From Clostridiaceae bacterium (lineage in GTDB: Bacteria > Bacillota > Clostridia > Christensenellales > CAG-917), in NCBI GenBank assembly GCA_031289315.1, contig JAITPR010000051.1, positions 6,426 to 70,425 on the forward strand: a stretch of DNA of 64,000 nucleotides, given 5' to 3'. Both the position numbers and the translations under genes were made by a program. How positions within the stretch are numbered: position 1 is the stretch's first letter; every line of letters starts with the position of its first letter. The notes under the pieces are model-generated. The model was given only the letters and a program-made list of their open reading frames with translations, searched no databases and was not told where the DNA came from. Positions 54,757-64,000 of this stretch are shown here, one piece after another.

Positions 54757-56100
54757 CTACATCAACAGCATACCCTCTCCGGTGTCGACGACATAAAGAA
54801 TATTTATTTCCTTACCAGTCATGGCATCGATGTATATTAGATACATGCCTTCCATTTCGCCCTCGAATTCGTACGCCAATTTCTCACTACCGTCGTTACG
54901 CGGAATGAGCGTCAGGCGTCCGTCCTTAGGCGAAAGTTCCTTATCTACGCGCGCCTTAGCCTCGTCGTGAGTTAACGTCGGCTCATCTAATTGCCGTTCG
55001 ACATGGTTAAAAGCGTAGTTTCGTGAGTCTAAACCGATTATTTTGAGATTTTCGCCGGACACTTTAACCTTTACTAAATCCGGATAATACACTATTCCGT
55101 CAACGACGGGCGCAAGATTGCAATATACCGTGCCGTTAGAATCGGATACCCATACGGTTTCCATGTTCTCAAAGCCCAACTGTGTCGCAAACTCCTCTGC
55201 CGCCGCCGAACAGGCGTCCGTATCCGCGCTATCGGCGTTGACGGAAACGTCCGCAGAATACTGAATAAGACTGCCGCCCTTTTTTGCAAGCTGGGCGGAT
55301 ACGTTTACACCGTCCACCGTAAGCGAAAAATTCAAGGTGTCTATATCCGTATTCCACTCCCCGTCAAATTTTATATTTTCAAGCGCGGCGCCCTCGAAGT
55401 ACTGCGCAAGCAGTTCACGCCCACGCGTCTCGTCTATGTCGTCGCCCTTAAGCCCTTTTACCTCTTTATCCGTAAGCGAATCGCTGAACGGTCCGTCATA
55501 AATCATCTGCGGATACTCGACGCTGTTTTCGTTAAGCCCGGAGAACACCTCGCTTAAAACTCCGCCGCCGTCAAAATCCATAAACAGGTAACCGCCTTGC
55601 AACTCGTCGTGTATGCGTTGCAGTTCGCCGCGTAGGCTCTTATACATGTCGCGCATTTTGCGCAATGTTTCCTTTTCGCCGGTTGCCAATGTAACATCTA
55701 CGCCAATCTTCTTGGCAAGGAAAAAACAATAATCGCCCGTTTGATTTACAAACCTCATGGTTTCGCTTATAGACGTTTCGCGTGAGGATAGGTGCGACAA
55801 GGCGGTCGCGGCGGACTCCGTTCCCTTCCAAACCTCGTATAGAAGCTCCTCTTGCATTTCCGCGCCGGAGCTTGCCAAAAGCTTCGTCAAATTTACGTCT
55901 ATTGTTTCCACCTCGGCGACAAGTCCGTAATACGAGTTTTGATATTCGTTTTCCAACAAATTTTTATAGTTTTCCGCGTCCGCGCTTCCCCCGTACGTAA
56001 CGCCCAACGCAATGCTCAACCCTACCACCGCTAGTGACAGAACAATGAGCGAAGTGATAATTAATGATTTTTTTACGGGGGTTTTAACACTGTCCCTCAT
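54757..56100 (-). CDS. ypeB: Spore germination protein YpeB
   Basis: LENEYQNSYY.L, F.NQ.GDY, YPQMIYDGPFSD, YPDLVKVKV, YEF..YIDAMTG.E; downstream of sleB. Confidence 0.88.
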   Translation of the reverse strand: MRDSVKTPVKKSLIITSLIVLSLAVVGLSIALGVTYGGSADAENYKNLLENEYQNSYYGLVAEVETIDVNLTKLLASSGAEMQEELLYEVWKGTESAATALSHLSSRETSISETMRFVNQTGDYCFFLAKKIGVDVTLATGEKETLRKMRDMYKSLRGELQRIHDELQGGYLFMDFDGGGVLSEVFSGLNENSVEYPQMIYDGPFSDSLTDKEVKGLKGDDIDETRGRELLAQYFEGAALENIKFDGEWNTDIDTLNFSLTVDGVNVSAQLAKKGGSLIQYSADVSVNADSADTDACSAAAEEFATQLGFENMETVWVSDSNGTVYCNLAPVVDGIVYYPDLVKVKVSGENLKIIGLDSRNYAFNHVERQLDEPTLTHDEAKARVDKELSPKDGRLTLIPRNDGSEKLAYEFEGEMEGMYLIYIDAMTGKEINILYVVDTGEGMLLM

Positions 56101-56350: not shown

Positions 56351-57097
56351 TCACACGCAGAACTTGTGGGAACCGATTTCCAGCTTGACGGTTCTGGACA
56401 TTATCCATGCGTTTGAGGTCTTTGCCGCGTTATAGAAGTAAAGACAACCGTTTGTGGGGTCCCAACCGTTCATGGCGTCCTTAGCGGCTTTGAGCGCACT
56501 TTCGCCGGGAGCAAGGTTTATTTGCCCGTCTAAAACGGAACTGAACGCATATTGCTGATAGATTACGCCGGAAATACTGTTGGGAAATAGACTGCTTCTC
56601 ACGCGGTTAAGCACCACCGCTGCAACCGCCACTTGACCCAAATAGGGTTCGCCGCGCGCCTCTCCGTGGATACACCGCGCCAAAAGGTTTACGTCCGCGG
56701 CGCTGTATCCTCCCGTACCGGTGCCGCTACTGCTTCCCGATGACGAACTGCCGGATAGCGTTATGCCCATTGCCGCCGCCGTCTTAGCGCCGACGACGCC
56801 GTCTGCGGTAAGCTTATTGCTGCGTTGAAAATACTTTACCGCCGCTTCAGTTTGCGAACCGAAAACACCGTCCACCACGCCGGTATAATACCCCCAATTT
56901 TTCAGCTTAGTTTGTACGGCTTTTACGTCCGCGCCGCTGCTGCCTTTTTTGATGACGGTAGCTGCGGACGCCGTATCGGACACGCCCATCGTGCCGCCTA
57001 CATTGACAAACACCAATGCAACGGACAGGACAAGCATAACCGCAAGCGCGGTTAATACCGCATGATTTTCGGTAAACTTACGCTTTTTTTCTTGCAT
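56351..57097 (-). CDS. sleB: Spore cortex-lytic enzyme
   Basis: PG-binding domain (VQTKLKNWGYY..DG.FG..T), Hydrolase_2 EARGEPY.GQVAVAAVVLNR, NGWDPT.G.LYFYN. Confidence 0.95.
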   Translation of the reverse strand: MQEKKRKFTENHAVLTALAVMLVLSVALVFVNVGGTMGVSDTASAATVIKKGSSGADVKAVQTKLKNWGYYTGVVDGVFGSQTEAAVKYFQRSNKLTADGVVGAKTAAAMGITLSGSSSSGSSSGTGTGGYSAADVNLLARCIHGEARGEPYLGQVAVAAVVLNRVRSSLFPNSISGVIYQQYAFSSVLDGQINLAPGESALKAAKDAMNGWDPTNGCLYFYNAAKTSNAWIMSRTVKLEIGSHKFCV

Positions 57098-57429: not shown

Positions 57430-57972
57430 TTATTCGCCGTCGCCGAAATATTTATCTATGAGTTCCTTTATTTTGGACTTGTAAACGACGTCGCCGCCGC
57501 TTCCGTCACCTACGAAGCACAGAGGGGGAAACGCCACACACCACCAATTGTCACCTTTGCCGATTCCCAATTCCACGATTAACGCGTCATAAAAGCCACT
57601 TTCAAATGTGTATTCAAGATATTCGCGCTTAGGAAATTCCTCGCGGGCAAGCCTCACGGACGCGGTATATCCAAAGCCGTTCTCTTTAAGCGCCGCATCG
57701 GCGGCAAACGCTATCCCGTCAAGCGACGCGGATATTACCGCAAGCGCTCCGTCACGGTCCTTGCACTCGACAAGTAGCGGAGTCAAAAACGAAACCACCG
57801 CGTCGCGCACTTTCAGCTTTACGTCCTGATCGGTTTTTTCGTTGCTGTTTGCGCGGATATGTATTCTTACGGCATCGCCGTACGGATTTTCTTTTTCTCC
57901 GCAACCGGCAAGCGCCAACGTGAATATCACCGACAGTGCCGCCGTCAATATTATTATTGTCTTTCTTTTCAT
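57430..57972 (-). CDS. spoIIR: Stage II sporulation protein R
   Basis: RIHIRANSN...DQ.VKLKVRD, FPKREY, G.YDAL...LG...G.NWWCVAFPPLCF. Confidence 0.93.
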   Translation of the reverse strand: MKRKTIIILTAALSVIFTLALAGCGEKENPYGDAVRIHIRANSNEKTDQDVKLKVRDAVVSFLTPLLVECKDRDGALAVISASLDGIAFAADAALKENGFGYTASVRLAREEFPKREYLEYTFESGFYDALIVELGIGKGDNWWCVAFPPLCFVGDGSGGDVVYKSKIKELIDKYFGDGE

Positions 57973-58344: not shown

Positions 58345-59892
58345 ATGAGCATTTTGACTATCAATAATTTAACGCACACGTTTGACGGCAACGTAATTTT
58401 CGAAGGAGCGTGCTTGAGCGTCAACAACGGGGAACATACCGGTATTGTGGGGCTTAACGGCGCGGGCAAGAGTACATTCATGAACATTCTCACCGGGCGG
58501 CTAATTCAGGACGACGGCGAGGTTAAGTGGCTTAACGGTATCAAGCGCGGCTATTTGGATCAGCACGCCGACATCGACCGCAACCAAACCGTTATGGAAT
58601 ACCTGCAAAGCTCGTTCAAACAGCTTTACGCGCTCAACGACCGCCTGGAACAGGTATACACCTCCATGGAAACGGAAAGGGACGCAGACGCTTTGGACGC
58701 CTTGATTTCGCGTTCCGCTTCCATGTTGGACGAGCTCACAAAAGAGGGCTTTTTTGAGCTAGATAGCGAGATTAAAAAGGTAGGCAACGGGTTGGGTATC
58801 GGCGCGATTGGATACGATACGCCCATAGCGATTTTGAGCGGCGGGCAGCGCGCCAAGGTAATGTTGGCAAGCTTGTTGCTTTCCGATTACGACATTCTGC
58901 TGTTGGATGAGCCGACGAACTTCCTTGATGTCGAACACATAAAGTGGTTGACCGACTATATAAATACGTATAAAAGCACGGTATTGGTGATTTCACACGA
59001 TACGGATTTTTTGAATAGCGTTTCACGCAACATTATAAGCGTGGAGGGACATGGCATAAAGAAGTATTCCGGCGATTACAATAGATTTTTGGCGGCTAGC
59101 GAAATCAACGCTAAACAGCATGAGGAAAGCTTTGAGCGTCAGCAACAGCAAATAAAAAAGCTGGAGGAGTTTATCTCAAAAAACAAAGCGCGCGCCGCGA
59201 CCGCCGGGATGGCGAATTCCCGAAAGAAACAACTAGATAAGTTGGAAATAATATCCAAACCCACGGTAATTTACCCTGCTGTTTTTCGCTTTCCTTACGT
59301 CAATACGCACTCCAATGAAATTTTGGAGGTTAAGGATTTGGTTATCGGCTACAACAATAAGCCGCTGTTGCCGCCCATAAGCTTCAAGATGAGCAGTGAA
59401 ACTAAGTTGCTTATCCGTGGCACAAACGGTATCGGTAAAAGCACTCTACTTAAAACATTGTTGCGCCGAATTCCGGCGATTTCCGGTTTCGGCAGTTTTC
59501 ACATCAATGCCAAAACTCTCTATTTGGAGCAAGATTTGGAGTTTTATAACGAAGAGGAGAGTGCGGTGGCGTATATCACGCGTTGTTATCCGCGCTTAGA
59601 TTCAAAGGCGGTACGCACGCAACTGGGCGGCGTAGGAATAAAAAACGACCTTGCCACAAAGCCGATTTGTAATCTTAGCGGAGGGGAGCAGGTAAAGGTG
59701 AAGCTGTGCGCGCTCATGCAAAAGGAAAGTAATTTTCTGTTGCTGGACGAGCCGACGAACCACTTAGACATAAAGGCTAAGGAAAGCCTTGCGGAAGCGC
59801 TTATTGGCTATGGCGGCGCCGTAATTTTAGTTACGCACGAACGCGCTTTCGCCGACAAGGTTTGCAACGACGTCCTTGACTGGGGCTGCTGA
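58345..59892 (+). CDS. ABC-F family ATP-binding protein
   Basis: Two ABC cassettes (GLNGAGKST, LSGGQ, LLLDEPTN; GTNGIGKST, LSGGE), no TM segments. Confidence 0.93.
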   Translation: MSILTINNLTHTFDGNVIFEGACLSVNNGEHTGIVGLNGAGKSTFMNILTGRLIQDDGEVKWLNGIKRGYLDQHADIDRNQTVMEYLQSSFKQLYALNDRLEQVYTSMETERDADALDALISRSASMLDELTKEGFFELDSEIKKVGNGLGIGAIGYDTPIAILSGGQRAKVMLASLLLSDYDILLLDEPTNFLDVEHIKWLTDYINTYKSTVLVISHDTDFLNSVSRNIISVEGHGIKKYSGDYNRFLAASEINAKQHEESFERQQQQIKKLEEFISKNKARAATAGMANSRKKQLDKLEIISKPTVIYPAVFRFPYVNTHSNEILEVKDLVIGYNNKPLLPPISFKMSSETKLLIRGTNGIGKSTLLKTLLRRIPAISGFGSFHINAKTLYLEQDLEFYNEEESAVAYITRCYPRLDSKAVRTQLGGVGIKNDLATKPICNLSGGEQVKVKLCALMQKESNFLLLDEPTNHLDIKAKESLAEALIGYGGAVILVTHERAFADKVCNDVLDWGC

Positions 59893-59916
59893 ATAGATAC
59901 ACGGGAGGATAATAAA

Positions 59917-60537
59917 ATGTCAAAATTATACGATAAGAACAAGGACCAATTACTTGTATATATGGAAAGCAATGGACACAAGCCGGGCGAAAAAGAAGCC
60001 GCCCTAGACACTGTAGCTAATCCTAGTATGGACTATGACCCGTCGGATAAGGACAAGTTAGCGAAGATGATACATAACGGCAATCGTCCCTTTGGCGGAA
60101 AATCCAAGGGAGTCGTGTTTACGGAGTTTGCCAACCGTTGCGTGTTTCACGATGGCAAGACCGCCAAGGATGCGGACATTTTTGCCGACGCGGGACTATT
60201 GCATGAAACGGGGAGGAGTGCAGTATATTCCCTTAATAAAAAACCGGAGGTTGGAACGGTTTTGCGTATAGGCATAGCATTAAGGCTGTCTACAACAGAA
60301 ATGGAAGATTGGGCGGAGCTGTTTGACAAGTCCTTTACATATGACCCGCTGGACTGTGTTTTGCGTGTATTTATGGAGCAAGAAGCGTACACGAAGCAGC
60401 TTTCATGGGGGCATAAAGATTATGTTCGCGGTAAAATATGGTATAAGCTCTACGAGTTTGCGGAAGCCGCACAAGTCGATTTTCCCACCGTAAATTCGCA
60501 ACTGTTGCTTACCCGGAACGAGAGGAAAGATACTTAG
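59917..60537 (+). CDS. Hypothetical XRE-like HTH protein, similar to the C-terminus of 15156-16406
   Basis: KKPEVGTVLRIGIALRLS...KSFTYDPLD.VLRVFMEQEAY; GGGAGG RBS. Confidence 0.65.
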   Translation: MSKLYDKNKDQLLVYMESNGHKPGEKEAALDTVANPSMDYDPSDKDKLAKMIHNGNRPFGGKSKGVVFTEFANRCVFHDGKTAKDADIFADAGLLHETGRSAVYSLNKKPEVGTVLRIGIALRLSTTEMEDWAELFDKSFTYDPLDCVLRVFMEQEAYTKQLSWGHKDYVRGKIWYKLYEFAEAAQVDFPTVNSQLLLTRNERKDT

Positions 60538-60567
60538 AAACCAAACGAAAGGGAGATACTTAGAAAC

Positions 60568-60622
60568 CGAATTAAAAAGCGGGGGTGTGTAAAATTTTTG
60601 CACACCCCCGCTTTTTAATTCG
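60568..60622. terminator. Bidirectional terminator (22-bp perfect inverted repeat)
   Basis: CGAATTAAAAAGCGGGGGTGTG ... CACACCCCCGCTTTTTAATTCG between convergent genes. Confidence 0.85.
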
Positions 60623-60708
60623 CAGGAGCAAAACTATAGTTGTTAAAGGTTTATTGCCGAAGCAACATCTATAATTGTGAAAGGTTTGTCATCGTGGCGA
60701 GGCCGGAA

Positions 60709-61812
60709 TTAGGCAATTTCGTACATGGACGGGATTGCGTAATTGAAGCTCATCGCCATTAAGCTAACGTATTCGTTTTTCAGTTCGGGCTTAACCGTTC
60801 CCTTAATCGCGTTGAGGAGGAGCGCACGTCCGGGCTGTACGTAGTCGTACGTAATCATATCAAAGCCGAAACCCGCTATGTTGTTTAGGAGCGCGGGGTT
60901 TTCTTCAAGGTAGCGCATGAAAGTTTCGAAGCTCTCTCTGTCGTACAGCATATATTCAAGCGGAGTGATTTTTTTAATGCCTGAGCCTTCGCCGGTACTG
61001 CGTCCGAAACCCGGTAACAGGTGTGCGCCAACGTCGGGAGAGCCTACCAAATCGTGTAAATATTGGTACATTGCCGGTCCGTCTTCAAGGTGGGGAAAAT
61101 CAGCGCCGCCCATCGTGCCGTTTCGGGGGGAGCGTCCAGAGTTATACGCGGGGTCGCACCAGTCGCTACTTATCATGAAATTCTTGCCGGATTCGCGCAT
61201 TTCTTTCATGGTTATTGTCTCTAAGTCGGTGCCTGCCGGAAAAGCGTATTTTTCCGGCTCCAAATATGTATTGATTTTGCTTTTTACGTATTCGACATCT
61301 TCCTCCGACAGATAGGTTTCGGATCTGCTTTCCCATACTAAGTCTATTTCGATGAATTCCGACGGGTGTTCGTCGCGGAATTGCCGCATATCCCGTAAAG
61401 CGCTCTCAAGAGAAATTTCGGATATTCCAACCCCGTGCGCGAAGTAAATCACTCCGTCACCCTTTCCGGTATAGCTAGAGCGCGCCACTCTAAGGTCGAA
61501 GCTGCGAACTCCGTAGTTGAGTTGTGTGTAAATGGGATCCTTCTGGCAATCCAAAAACGTCGTTTTCAAAGCCATGACATGAGAATTTACTATGCCCGCG
61601 TCGTGTGAGTGCAGTTTAATTGTATCCACATAACGCACGTCGTCGCGAAGATACGACATATACTCCGAATAAATTGACGGTCCTTCTTCTTCTTCTTTCT
61701 TTTCGATGTGACTTATAAAAACTATGGAAAGACCGAGGGTCAGCGCCAACAATATCACGATTAACGCAATCGGAACTACGCGTCTTAAAACAATATCTTT
61801 TTCTCGTTTCAT
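60709..61812 (-). CDS. Membrane-anchored PI-PLC X-domain (PLC-like phosphodiesterase) protein
   Basis: N-terminal TM helix; SHDAG, CQ...IYTQLNYGVRSFDLR, AHG, F..EHPSEFI. Confidence 0.8.
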   Translation of the reverse strand: MKREKDIVLRRVVPIALIVILLALTLGLSIVFISHIEKKEEEEGPSIYSEYMSYLRDDVRYVDTIKLHSHDAGIVNSHVMALKTTFLDCQKDPIYTQLNYGVRSFDLRVARSSYTGKGDGVIYFAHGVGISEISLESALRDMRQFRDEHPSEFIEIDLVWESRSETYLSEEDVEYVKSKINTYLEPEKYAFPAGTDLETITMKEMRESGKNFMISSDWCDPAYNSGRSPRNGTMGGADFPHLEDGPAMYQYLHDLVGSPDVGAHLLPGFGRSTGEGSGIKKITPLEYMLYDRESFETFMRYLEENPALLNNIAGFGFDMITYDYVQPGRALLLNAIKGTVKPELKNEYVSLMAMSFNYAIPSMYEIA

Positions 61813-62005
61813 AATGATATACCTCTATATAACCTTATAAAGTAAAATGTCGAAAAATGCAAAATTTTACCTTACGCAGATTTTCTCCGCTTGCATTAAA
61901 TTATAACTGAAAATGTCAATGAATGCAATATGAAACATGAAAAAAAATAAAAATACAATAAATGCGTTACGATTTACGTGTTATTTTTAGATTGAAAGGC
62001 GTAAA

Positions 62006-62530
62006 TTAGTCCTTTAGACACATCAGCAACAGAATAATCGATTTTGCGTCGCGGAGTTTGCCGGATTTTATCATGGCAAGCGCTTCGCTTACGGGTAATT
62101 TTATTATGTTTAAGAACTCGTCGTCGTCGGGGTGAACCGGAGCTTCCGACAGCCCCTCCGCACGGAAAAGGTACAGCTTTTCGTTGTTATAACCGGGAGT
62201 GGGGTACACCGTCGTGACAAGCTCCGCCCGTTCGGCTTTAAGACCGACCTCCTCCGTAAGCTCCCGCAGTGCCGCGTGTTCCGGATTTTCTCCGTATTCA
62301 AGCTTACCCGCGGGAAGCTCTAAAAGCGTTTCGCCGTAGGGATAGCGGAACTGCTCCACAAAATAAACCAGTCCGTCCTTAACCGCAAGGATACAGGCTC
62401 CCCCCGGATGCTCAACCAGTTCGCGCACGGCGGTATTTCCGTTGGGTAGCAGTACATCGTCGCGGCGTAAATTTATTATCTTACCGCTGTAAACGGTGTT
62501 CTTTTTTATGGTTTTCTCTTCAAGTCGCAT
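62006..62530 (-). CDS. nudF: NUDIX hydrolase, ADP-ribose pyrophosphatase-like
   Basis: Nudix box GKLEYGENPEHAALRELTEEVG; REL.EHPGG, QFRYP, TPG, DDDEFL, DAKS. Confidence 0.85.
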   Translation of the reverse strand: MRLEEKTIKKNTVYSGKIINLRRDDVLLPNGNTAVRELVEHPGGACILAVKDGLVYFVEQFRYPYGETLLELPAGKLEYGENPEHAALRELTEEVGLKAERAELVTTVYPTPGYNNEKLYLFRAEGLSEAPVHPDDDEFLNIIKLPVSEALAMIKSGKLRDAKSIILLLMCLKD

Positions 62531-62660
62531 AGGTTAATAGTTTTTTAAAACGCGTAGGTGTTGCCACGAAAGGCAATAAGATATTTTTTGCTAAAGGTTT
62601 GCGGTGTTTACTCTAAAAGGCATTCGGTGTTTCTACCGCAAGGCAATAGGTATCTCTGTT

Positions 62661-63530
62661 TTACCTTTTTTTGCCGAAGAAGCCAATTCTATCATAAGCT
62701 TGATATTTTTTACGTATCACTTCCGCATAATCCGGTTCTATTTGCGCCAGATAGGAAAAGCGCCCCTTTATTACCGATTTATCACCTTCGTCCTTAAGTA
62801 ACAGCTTATAGATGTCGCCCTTCAGCGTCTTCTTATAAGTCGTACCCACGGACAGCTTTCCTTTATCGGTAATTATAATTCCGGTGACTTGCTTTCGTGA
62901 GGACATGCAATAGGTTTTATTCGGATTAAGAGAAAAGCCCGCCGCTTTGACCGCCGCTTCGGCTTGCGATATGAAAACCTTCTGTATGTAGCGACGCGAC
63001 GAGAAAATCATATCGTCCGCGTAGCGCGTGTATTTGACGAAAAACGACAGCGAACCCAACTTTTTATCTAGCCCGTACAGGACGCGGTTGGCTACGAACG
63101 GCGAAGCCGGAGAACCTATAGGTAGACCGTCGTTAAAGGATATTATATTCCAAACCATGTCCAAATCCGCTGCGGCAAAAACTTTTTTATAGGTTTCCAT
63201 GAACATGCGCCTGCTTACGGAAGGGAAAAAATCCTTGATGTCCAAATGCAACAAATGTTTTCCGCGCGCGTGTTTTTGGGCGTTTCGTTTTACCGAACAG
63301 CCTTTTTCGTACGCCGCGACATACTTCCCGGCGGGTATGCGTTGGAGATACGGCAAGACAATCCTTATTGCGCTTAGCAATTGCGGACGCGGCTTGCAGA
63401 TTTCGCGGGAGCCGCCGCTTTGCTTCTTAATGTAATAAACGTCGTAGAAAGCCCGTGAATTAACTAAAATACTCTCCAGGGTTTCCGCCCCTAAAACGTT
63501 TTCCAGCGTGCGCCGTAACTCGGTTGCCAT
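62661..63530 (-). CDS. Retron-type reverse transcriptase
   Basis: KKQSGGSREICKP, NAQKH (NAxxH), LDIKDFFPS, GLPIGSPASP, YTRYADD, LNPNKT, QVTG; GAGGGGGAG RBS. Confidence 0.9.
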   Translation of the reverse strand: MATELRRTLENVLGAETLESILVNSRAFYDVYYIKKQSGGSREICKPRPQLLSAIRIVLPYLQRIPAGKYVAAYEKGCSVKRNAQKHARGKHLLHLDIKDFFPSVSRRMFMETYKKVFAAADLDMVWNIISFNDGLPIGSPASPFVANRVLYGLDKKLGSLSFFVKYTRYADDMIFSSRRYIQKVFISQAEAAVKAAGFSLNPNKTYCMSSRKQVTGIIITDKGKLSVGTTYKKTLKGDIYKLLLKDEGDKSVIKGRFSYLAQIEPDYAEVIRKKYQAYDRIGFFGKKR

Positions 63531-63648
63531 AAGTTGATCTCCCCCTCTGCGGACGGATTATATAAAAAAACGCTTGCCGGTCTGCCGTTTTGAGCATGAT
63601 AACCGCCCACGCAACAGAACAGCGAAGCGTCCCGTAAAAGACAAAAAA

Positions 63649-63761
63649 GGATTTCCGCAAATGGGAAAACCGCATTTATGCGGTTTTCTTATTTCACTGA
63701 CCGTCTATACTGTCCTTGCTTACACAAGGCTTGCCCGATTAAGGGTAGTTTCCGGAAATCC
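63649..63761 (-). ncRNA. Retron msr-msd non-coding RNA
   Basis: Inverted repeats GGATTTCCG (63649-63657) / CGGAAATCC (63753-63761); unpaired G at 63752; two small msr hairpins; 17-bp msd stem 63659-63694. Confidence 0.8.
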
Positions 63762-63767
63762 ATATTC

Positions 63768-63796
63768 ATTATACAACGGCTCGGTGGAAATTGCAA
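63768..63796 (-). promoter_or_regulatory. sigmaA-like promoter of the retron
   Basis: Minus strand TTGCAA-17 bp-TATAAT, ending 6 bp before the first inverted repeat. Confidence 0.8.
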
Positions 63797-63866
63797 TAGT
63801 TTTTTATAAAAACTTAAATTGAGCCGTACAATGTAGCCGTAAACGGATTTATTAATAAGACCCGGC

Positions 63867-64000
63867 TTATTTAGGAATATAGCCGAACCTTTCGCAGTTA
63901 GCCAACCACCCCGCCGCATTTACAACGTATCTATCAGTACCGGCGCTGTCCCAGTCGTAGAATAATCTAGTAAACCCTCCGTCTATCAAGCAACGCCTGC
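63867..64000 (-). CDS. 3' end of a CDS running off the window (unknown, possibly GATase-like fold)
   Basis: Hand translation RRCLIDGGFTRLFYDWDSAGTDRYVVNAAGWLANCERFGYIPK*; not in the ORF track because the start lies outside the window. Confidence 0.6.
   Translation of the reverse strand, partial: RRCLIDGGFTRLFYDWDSAGTDRYVVNAAGWLANCERFGYIPK

Follow-up and report, generated by a model that had tools for sequence, protein, structure and literature searches.

Experimentally studied type II-A retrons, namely Ec86/Eco1 and St85/Sen2, possess an NDT-like effector. In the passages of Mestre et al. 2020 that set out the classification, retrons are divided into 13 types according to their associated proteins, and types I-A and II-A1 share one module of non-coding RNA (ncRNA) and reverse transcriptase (RT) (PMC7736814). 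Passages of the same paper give the name “orphan retrons” to branches within RT clades 2 and 11, Retron-Eco5/Ec107 being one example; most of their host genomes are without homologs of known retron-associated proteins, and it was left open in 2020 whether effectors not yet known act in trans or whether the mechanism is a different one (PMC7736814). In the full-text literature the phrase “orphan retron” was found in Mestre et al. 2020 only. The Ec107-like orphan lineage is described, in passages of a 2026 survey, as abundant in gut Bacillota, with 93% Bacillota, 92% host-associated members and no dominant accessory module (PMC13712802). Here we analyse a retron on the minus strand of a 64,000-nt stretch of a Clostridiaceae genome (the window; GenBank assembly GCA_031289315.1, here G000; contig JAITPR010000051.1, here C44, positions 6426-70425). 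We consider it probable that this ncRNA and its RT form a functional two-part retron, part of a sublineage without effector whose origin lies among the NDT-carrying type II-A1 retrons. Retrons that have no effector are already known as a kind; judged by hidden Markov model scores and by two trees built without clade 2 references, the window retron appears to represent a further lineage of orphans, in which the orphan state arose independently, because its RT lineage is a different one. What effector-less retrons do has been an open question since 2020, and the window clade offers a clean case, with sisters that keep the NDT toxin. It leaves the current picture of retrons unchanged and is a useful, unsurprising example.

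The motifs NAxxH, YADD and VTG together define retron RTs. The 289-aa RT read in the preliminary description has all three (NAQKH at residues 83-87, YADD at 170-173 and VTG at 215-217), and the remark made there that it has no fused domain agrees with Pfam, which sees RVT_1 alone. According to PADLOC, the best 25 of the 76 matches are all retron RT models, led by RT_II-A (PDLC02939, 190 bits, 1.6e-56), RT_III-A (183 bits) and a second RT_II-A model (173 bits), with RT_I-A (167 bits) and RT_Ec107-like (155 bits) further down. The best NCBIfam models are also those of retrons, with retron_St85_RT (NF038233) at the top (212.4 bits). The nearest solved chains by sequence are the retron RTs of Ec78 (3e-25), Ec83 (3.6e-21) and Ec86 (3.3e-20).

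Close relatives of this RT form a very small clade, as 13 matches were obtained at E <= 1e-20 among 5.8 billion clustered proteins. Six of them (P0002-P0007) are 47-55% identical and two more 37-40%, which together with the window's RT make up a close set of nine. Counting one genome per species, the close loci are L004, L005 and L006 (46-55% identity), and the next best stands at 33%. At the same threshold, the RT was matched in 12 of 401 sampled genomes of the order, the window's genome included, and in 0 of 20 same-family genomes checked; it is present in 3 of the 6 genomes of genus g31, a member of another family. Scans of metagenomes and viral contigs with the RT alignment and with generic patterns returned, among the matches listed, distant retron RTs of at most 36% identity. 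These served as labelled tree background and added no members to the clade.

For the phylogeny, 187 RT frames were taken from 188 matching loci; 13 loci duplicating the window or its relatives were set aside, 10 clustered proteins were added, and rows at least 65% identical to a kept row were dropped, resulting in 156 rows. Rows were labelled by the genes within 2.5 kb, with neighbour clusters named by PADLOC from one representative each, and the label classes were NDT_II-A, PRTase_III-A, PtuA/ATPase_I-A and PtuB/HNH_I-A. FastTree places the window in a 10-row Clostridia clade (SH-like support 96) together with L004, L005, L006, P0004-P0007, L217 and L218, none of which has a labelled effector. 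The sister of this clade consists of P0008, P0009 and the NDT-linked L219 and L047, and the enclosing 58-row clade (support 98) contains 28 NDT-linked rows, 11 PtuAB-linked rows and 19 whose context is cut, unknown or unlabelled. An IQ-TREE quick search (LG+C20+F+G4) over 78 rows, comprising the 58-row clade and 20 outgroup rows chosen with nine long-branch rows kept out, repeats both the 10-row clade (SH-aLRT 97) and its 14-row union with the NDT-linked sisters (97). RT_II-A is the top PADLOC model and both trees agree with it; on this sequence evidence the window RT is a member of the type I-A/II-A1 retron lineage. The preliminary description had allowed for an RT that clusters outside the retrons, but PADLOC, NCBIfam, the solved structures and both trees place it inside. 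If III-A and fused RTs serve as the root, the tree is explained most simply by loss of an NDT gene on the stem of the 10-row clade.

Could the window retron instead be a member of the known Ec107-like (clade 2) orphan lineage? Phylum and habitat would fit what is described for that lineage (PMC13712802); the source run of the window carries the label termite gut metagenome. The locus resembles the orphan retrons of Mestre et al. 2020 in consisting of an ncRNA and an RT only, with no protein specifically associated across the branch. However, RT_Ec107-like reaches 155 bits compared to 190 for RT_II-A and ranks below four II-A, III-A and I-A models; both trees, albeit without clade 2 references, put the RT in the NDT/PtuAB-linked lineage (support 97-98), and the three nearest solved RTs are Ec78, Ec83 and Ec86. 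The RT thus lies in the I-A/II-A1 lineage and is neither Ec107-like nor of clade 11, which makes membership extremely unlikely.

As to type II-A1, the window RT is nearest to the RT_II-A and St85-family models, and the NDT-carrying sister L219 has the same ncRNA plan. On the other hand, the window has no NDT gene between ncRNA and RT or anywhere in the assembled genome, and its RT is shorter (289 aa vs. 310-330 aa in solved relatives) and scores below the NCBIfam cut-off. In L219 (genome G356), the one sister locus that was read, the order is ncRNA, NDT_II-A protein (4.4e-35) and RT. The NDT models PDLC02928 and PDLC02930 gave no match in G000, G087, G113 and G137; in G356, which served as positive control, they matched at 1e-34 and 3e-31. 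With type I-A (Ec78, Ec83; effectors PtuA and PtuB) the window shares the RT lineage, but it has no PtuA/PtuB neighbours, its flanking ORFs (open reading frames) falling outside both neighbour clusters. Genome-wide, ATPase_I-A gave short P-loop matches in SMC-size frames only, a signal also seen in 11 of 14 control genomes, whereas the HNH_I-A model was not searched at that scale. No PRTase-cluster neighbour is present at the locus, and the PRTase model PDLC02931 matched none of five genomes; this blank is weak because the control search was positive in no genome either. As far as the NDT models go, the genomes searched resemble those of the orphan retrons of Mestre et al. 2020 in being without matches; for the PRTase model the likeness is subject to the weak control.

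Across the clade loci with readable context, no neighbour of the retron is conserved. In an all-against-all blastp of the frames of at least 40 aa flanking the window, contig C4 (which continues the upstream side, see below), L004, L005, L006, L217 and L218, the RT was the only full-length protein shared between any of these loci, which represent the 6 of 6 clade members that could be compared. The other matches were alternative frames of the RT/ncRNA region and one generic ABC-ATPase match. Downstream of the window retron lies a Nudix gene, and upstream of it the gene of a zinc-ribbon protein; L004 is flanked by an ABC transporter upstream (by eye) and a 244-aa protein downstream, and L005 by a repeat-rich surface-protein-like frame upstream (by eye) and a dCMP-deaminase-like protein downstream; L006 adjoins a protein gene on the opposite strand, and the neighbours of L217 and L218 are unrelated genes. 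The preliminary description had asked whether the NUDIX, PI-PLC or upstream gene is retained beside homologs of the RT; according to the clade loci and the blastp of the flanking ORFs, none of them is. The statement that there is no recognisable effector holds for the locus and, as far as the NDT models go, for the assembled genome, and none of the known kind lies just beyond the window end, where C4 encodes the zinc-ribbon protein, a GNAT acetyltransferase and rnfCDGEAB-like frames. PADLOC recognised no defence family among the neighbours except for a weak match of the Nudix protein to PDC-S07 and a dCTPase-model match of the L005 deaminase. This 151-aa protein (L005 2488-2943) matches the deaminase part of the model (4e-36) and is probably a housekeeping enzyme, because it lies 600 nt from the RT and upstream of an rsmA-like gene (by eye). 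Some ORFs within the RT gene, antisense or in alternative frames, match between loci; they were rejected as genes, because they follow from nucleotide conservation and stops interrupt them in the window.

In 5 of 5 orphan-clade loci with upstream sequence, nothing intervenes between the ncRNA and the RT that follows it; the spacing in the window is 118 nt. A retron ncRNA is characterised, in passages on the subject (PMC10849725), by an a1/a2 inverted repeat of more than 8 bp, a priming G near the start and several hairpins. All of these are found in the window upstream of the RT: a 9-bp a1/a2 stem, G63752, a pair of msr hairpins and one hairpin in the msd (Table 1). The promoter, both arms, the two facing guanines, the hairpins and the overall length of about 113 nt had been laid out in the preliminary description, and each is confirmed at its place on the minus strand. 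A 131-nt RNA folds with -41.9 kcal/mol (z = -4.06), and none of 200 shuffles is as stable. The promoter ranks first of 5 promoter-like sites in 62300-64000 (shuffles contain 2.1 on average), its -10 box ends 7 nt 5′ of a1, and TTGACA/TATAAT-like boxes also precede a1 in L004 and L005 (by eye). A run of six T (63648-63643) follows directly 3′ of a2. The G after a1 and the G before a2 are present in all six ncRNAs inspected, i.e. those of the window, L004, L005, L217, L218 and the NDT-linked L219. The last a1 pair is G-C in the window, A-U in L218 and U-A in L217 (the latter by eye).

Two details of the hairpins have to be adjusted. The second msr hairpin, whose sequence is unchanged in L004 and L005, had been written CCUUG-UGUAAG-CAAGG; it is present at 63729-63714, but the fold adds a U·G pair and leaves GUAA as the loop. 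The msd hairpin, separated from the msr by a spacer, had been given as a 17-bp stem. Its inverted-repeat arms (63659-63675 and 63678-63694) are indeed 17 nt each and 88% complementary, but a feasible loop of 4 nt leaves 16 bp. As DNA, this stem is unbroken and includes two G·T pairs, whereas as RNA it consists of 10 and 4 bp flanking a 2x2 A·C loop. The pairing difference had been brought forward as a sign that the stem folds as DNA. The observation is correct, but the argument weighs little because it concerns two positions in one sequence, and the matching stems of L004 and L005 are Watson-Crick both as DNA and as RNA.

L005 (690-960) has a second inverted repeat, rich in G+C, which shares sequence with the a2 arm and has a T run behind it. 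Between there and the RT, three 37-nt tandem repeats take up a gap of 300 nt; in the other four loci the gap measures 13-118 nt.

Table 1. Coordinates of the retron and of the gene upstream of it (window numbering unless indicated).
Feature	Position	Strand	Basis
Sigma-70-type promoter of the ncRNA, TTGCAA-17-TATAAT	63768..63796	-	10/12 consensus matches
Retron ncRNA (msr-msd), 113 nt including both a1 and a2	63649..63761	-	fold and same plan in 5 relatives
a1 arm GGATTTCCG, pairs with a2 (9-bp a1/a2 stem)	63753..63761	-	inverted repeat
Predicted branching (priming) G, first unpaired base 3′ of a1	63752..63752	-	position; putative priming role
msr hairpin 1, CCC / TTAATC / GGG	63734..63745	-	fold
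msr hairpin 2, CCUUGU / GUAA / GCAAGG	63714..63729	-	fold
msd hairpin, predicted to be copied into the msDNA stem (16 bp in DNA form)	63659..63694	-	inverted repeat and fold
G directly 5′ of a2, faces the branching G; putative first template base	63658..63658	-	
a2 arm CGGAAATCC	63649..63657	-	inverted repeat with a1
Retron reverse transcriptase, 289 aa, without fused domain	62661..63530	-	ORF and profile searches
Upstream gene, ~293 aa, N-terminal zinc ribbon	L003 11150-11998 plus window 63868-64000	-	read through the C44-C4 overlap

All folded ncRNAs (window, L004, L005, L218, L217 and L219) have the closing stem, two msr hairpins and the msd hairpin, with z ranging from -3.1 to -9.1. Among the window, L004 and L005, a1 plus msr is 77-97% identical while the msd is only 28-36% identical; nonetheless, the hairpin is present in each. 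When five ncRNAs were aligned with MAFFT, the msd part could not be used. A covariance model trained on the three closest ncRNAs was run against 65 sources, and beyond its training rows it recovered L218 (E = 0.0035). In the model-fitted alignment of these four sequences, 68 of 68 pair cells are standard and compensatory changes occur in 5 of 17 pairs, spread over all three helices; 2 of 500 shuffles were as good.

Nine RTs, 36-55% identical to the window's, share 47 invariant columns that include NAxxH, YADD and VTG. Among the window, L004 and L005, nucleotide identity of the RT gene is 55-66%, and third codon positions are saturated at 36-52%. The two-part module is under purifying selection, because the msr is kept at 77-97% where third codon positions are saturated, and the msd is scrambled yet still forms a hairpin. 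These data bear on the possibility that the locus is a decaying, functionless remnant of a II-A retron after deletion of its toxin gene. A missing cognate effector would be expected of such a remnant, and the distribution of the RT is patchy (3 of 6 genomes in g31, none of 20 from the family of the window). However, the 289-aa ORF is uninterrupted and retains every catalytic motif along with the invariant columns just described, the msr outlasts third codon positions, compensatory changes are seen in all three helices, and intact RT frames occur in at least six orphan loci, one frame being truncated 5′ by a contig start. We therefore find decay very unlikely.

How would a retron of this kind work? 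For the functional two-part retron that we favour, the ncRNA would start at a1, driven by the promoter at 63796-63768. The a1/a2 stem would close the RNA, and the RT would bind the two conserved msr hairpins. The 2′-OH of G63752 may then prime copying of the msd by the RT, first opposite G63658, and the product would be a short branched msDNA (multicopy single-stranded DNA) of roughly 40-55 nt with the 16-bp hairpin as its core. Most likely, the pair would represent the retained sensor/antitoxin half of a II-A retron, working with an unlinked partner or alone. If it works alone, it might for example neutralise related incoming NDT toxins or serve as a decoy for msDNA-attacking phage proteins. 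We rank an unlinked partner or an antitoxin/decoy role above a locally recruited neighbour, and the latter above decay. A more far-reaching version, which we regard as possible but doubtful, holds that the RT-msDNA complex itself is the functional unit and that the lineage has dispensed with any protein effector, the pair being kept by purifying selection over a divergence at which synonymous sites are saturated; it may then act as a stand-alone neutraliser of NDT toxins from mobile elements, as a decoy for msDNA-targeting phage proteins, or in a role outside defence.

Several points weigh against a functional two-part retron of type II-A1 descent. The branched msDNA of the window retron is a predicted product. 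The RT falls just short of the curated cut-off of the NCBIfam model retron_St85_RT (212.4 vs. 235 bits). An Rfam scan of 61000-64000 (E <= 10) found no family at 63649-63761, its one match being a chance hit to ceN22 elsewhere (E = 1.7). The covariance model misses L217, L219 and every I-A/II-A locus among the 65 sources, and the tie of the window ncRNA to the IA/IIA1 ncRNA class is one of architecture by eye, because L218 is all that the model recovers. Loss as opposed to never having gained the NDT gene depends on rooting with III-A and fused RTs. Gene context is readable for 6 of the 10 clade members, P0004-P0007 being the other four; L006 has no upstream sequence, and that of L005 extends for only 990 nt. 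Finally, G000 is 89.6% complete in 63 contigs, and therefore an unlinked effector could be unassembled.

The loss of the effector is old enough that retention of both ncRNA and RT implies selection. Because the retron is small, with a 113-nt ncRNA and a 289-aa RT, it could be used to test the function of an RT-msDNA pair without a toxin. A compact RT with a short hairpin msDNA may also interest builders of retron-based editors.

The two flanking genes were considered as locally recruited effectors. The hydrolase that had been described as NudF-like and 130 bp downstream is a Nudix ORF at exactly this spacing. A Nudix effector hydrolysing ADP-ribose or nucleotides would define a new tripartite type; II-A effectors also act on nucleotides or NAD. 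Its gene lies on the same strand, begins 130 nt downstream of the RT with no minus-strand terminator-like site in between, and its product has the weak PADLOC match to the candidate PDC-S07 (1.9e-9). The distribution of the gene, however, is not that of the retron. Nudix orthologs (46-58% identity) are found in 15 of 40 same-family genomes compared to 0 of 20 for the RT; in two of four relatives' loci the Nudix gene adjoins homologs of the window genes 57430-57972, 56351-57097 and 54757-56100 in the absence of an RT; and none of the five other orphan-clade loci has a Nudix neighbour. By this distribution the Nudix gene is a vertically inherited neighbour, and a role as effector is highly improbable.

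Three genes at 58345-61812 are located between the Nudix gene and the genes that flank it in the relatives L237 and L238. They encode a 515-aa ABC-F-type ATPase, a 206-aa protein and a 367-aa protein, the last with a sub-threshold PI-PLC-X match and an N-terminal membrane helix (by eye). The Nudix gene is inverted relative to the flanking genes of L237 and L238, and the region is a variable part of the chromosome. The 130-nt spacer between RT and Nudix genes contains a 12-nt motif twice (62567-62578 and 62637-62648, 92% identical); the copies sit in imperfect repeats of ~24 nt and may be regulatory or belong to a repeat element.

The upstream gene runs past the end of the window. C44 ends 13 nt beyond the window, and over its terminal 119 nt it agrees with the end of contig C4 at every position (window 63895-64000 plus the C44 end; L003 11882-12000), so that the zinc-ribbon gene can be read across the overlap. 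The C44-C4 join is likely real. On C4, the gene is preceded by that of the GNAT acetyltransferase (Pfam) and, further from the retron, by six frames read by eye as rnfCDGEAB. In the source run, the 119-mer is a separate unitig with a depth of 42.9 compared to 26.8 for the retron contig, and a 216-nt contig shows 6 differences and branches off at 63863; because of these two observations, a second related copy of the 3′ end of the zinc-ribbon gene seems to be present in the sample.

Could this zinc-ribbon protein be a novel effector recruited by the retron? The gene is on the same strand and ends 72 nt before the retron promoter, and it is accessory and patchy, being found in 0 of 40 same-family genomes and in 4 of 401 genomes of the order (G000 included), a patchiness that is common for defence genes. 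The protein has no match in Pfam, PADLOC or NCBIfam; look-alikes in the Atlas have glutamine-amidotransferase-like, DUF4350 and ThuA-type folds, which is a lead only. Against recruitment, the gene is absent from all 6 genomes of genus g31, 3 of which are RT-positive, and the other three carriers (G089, G178 and G243) are outside the 11 other RT-positive genomes. Because its carriers other than G000 are without the RT, the gene does not travel with the retron. Its family is also large, with 441 proteins at E <= 1e-3, compared to 13 RT matches and a close set of 9, and PADLOC does not recognise it. Recruitment of this protein is accordingly very unlikely.

With a GC content of 0.44-0.48, the retron is not different from its surroundings, and there is therefore no compositional sign of recent transfer. 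The ncRNA-RT cassette lies between the two copies of a 15-nt direct repeat (62536-62550 and 63795-63809), which are 1259 nt apart and agree at 14 of 15 positions; one overlaps the -35 box, and the other lies 6 nt before the Nudix start. Similarly placed direct repeats were not found in L004, L005 and L217; the repeat could be a target duplication, or a chance occurrence in AT-rich spacer sequence. A run from a second study contains contig pieces of ~3x depth that cover 62436-62650 and 62973-63280 with 0-1 differences, the 308-nt piece inside the RT showing none. Because these pieces from an independent study are nearly identical to the window, the same strain and retron are present in more than one sample.

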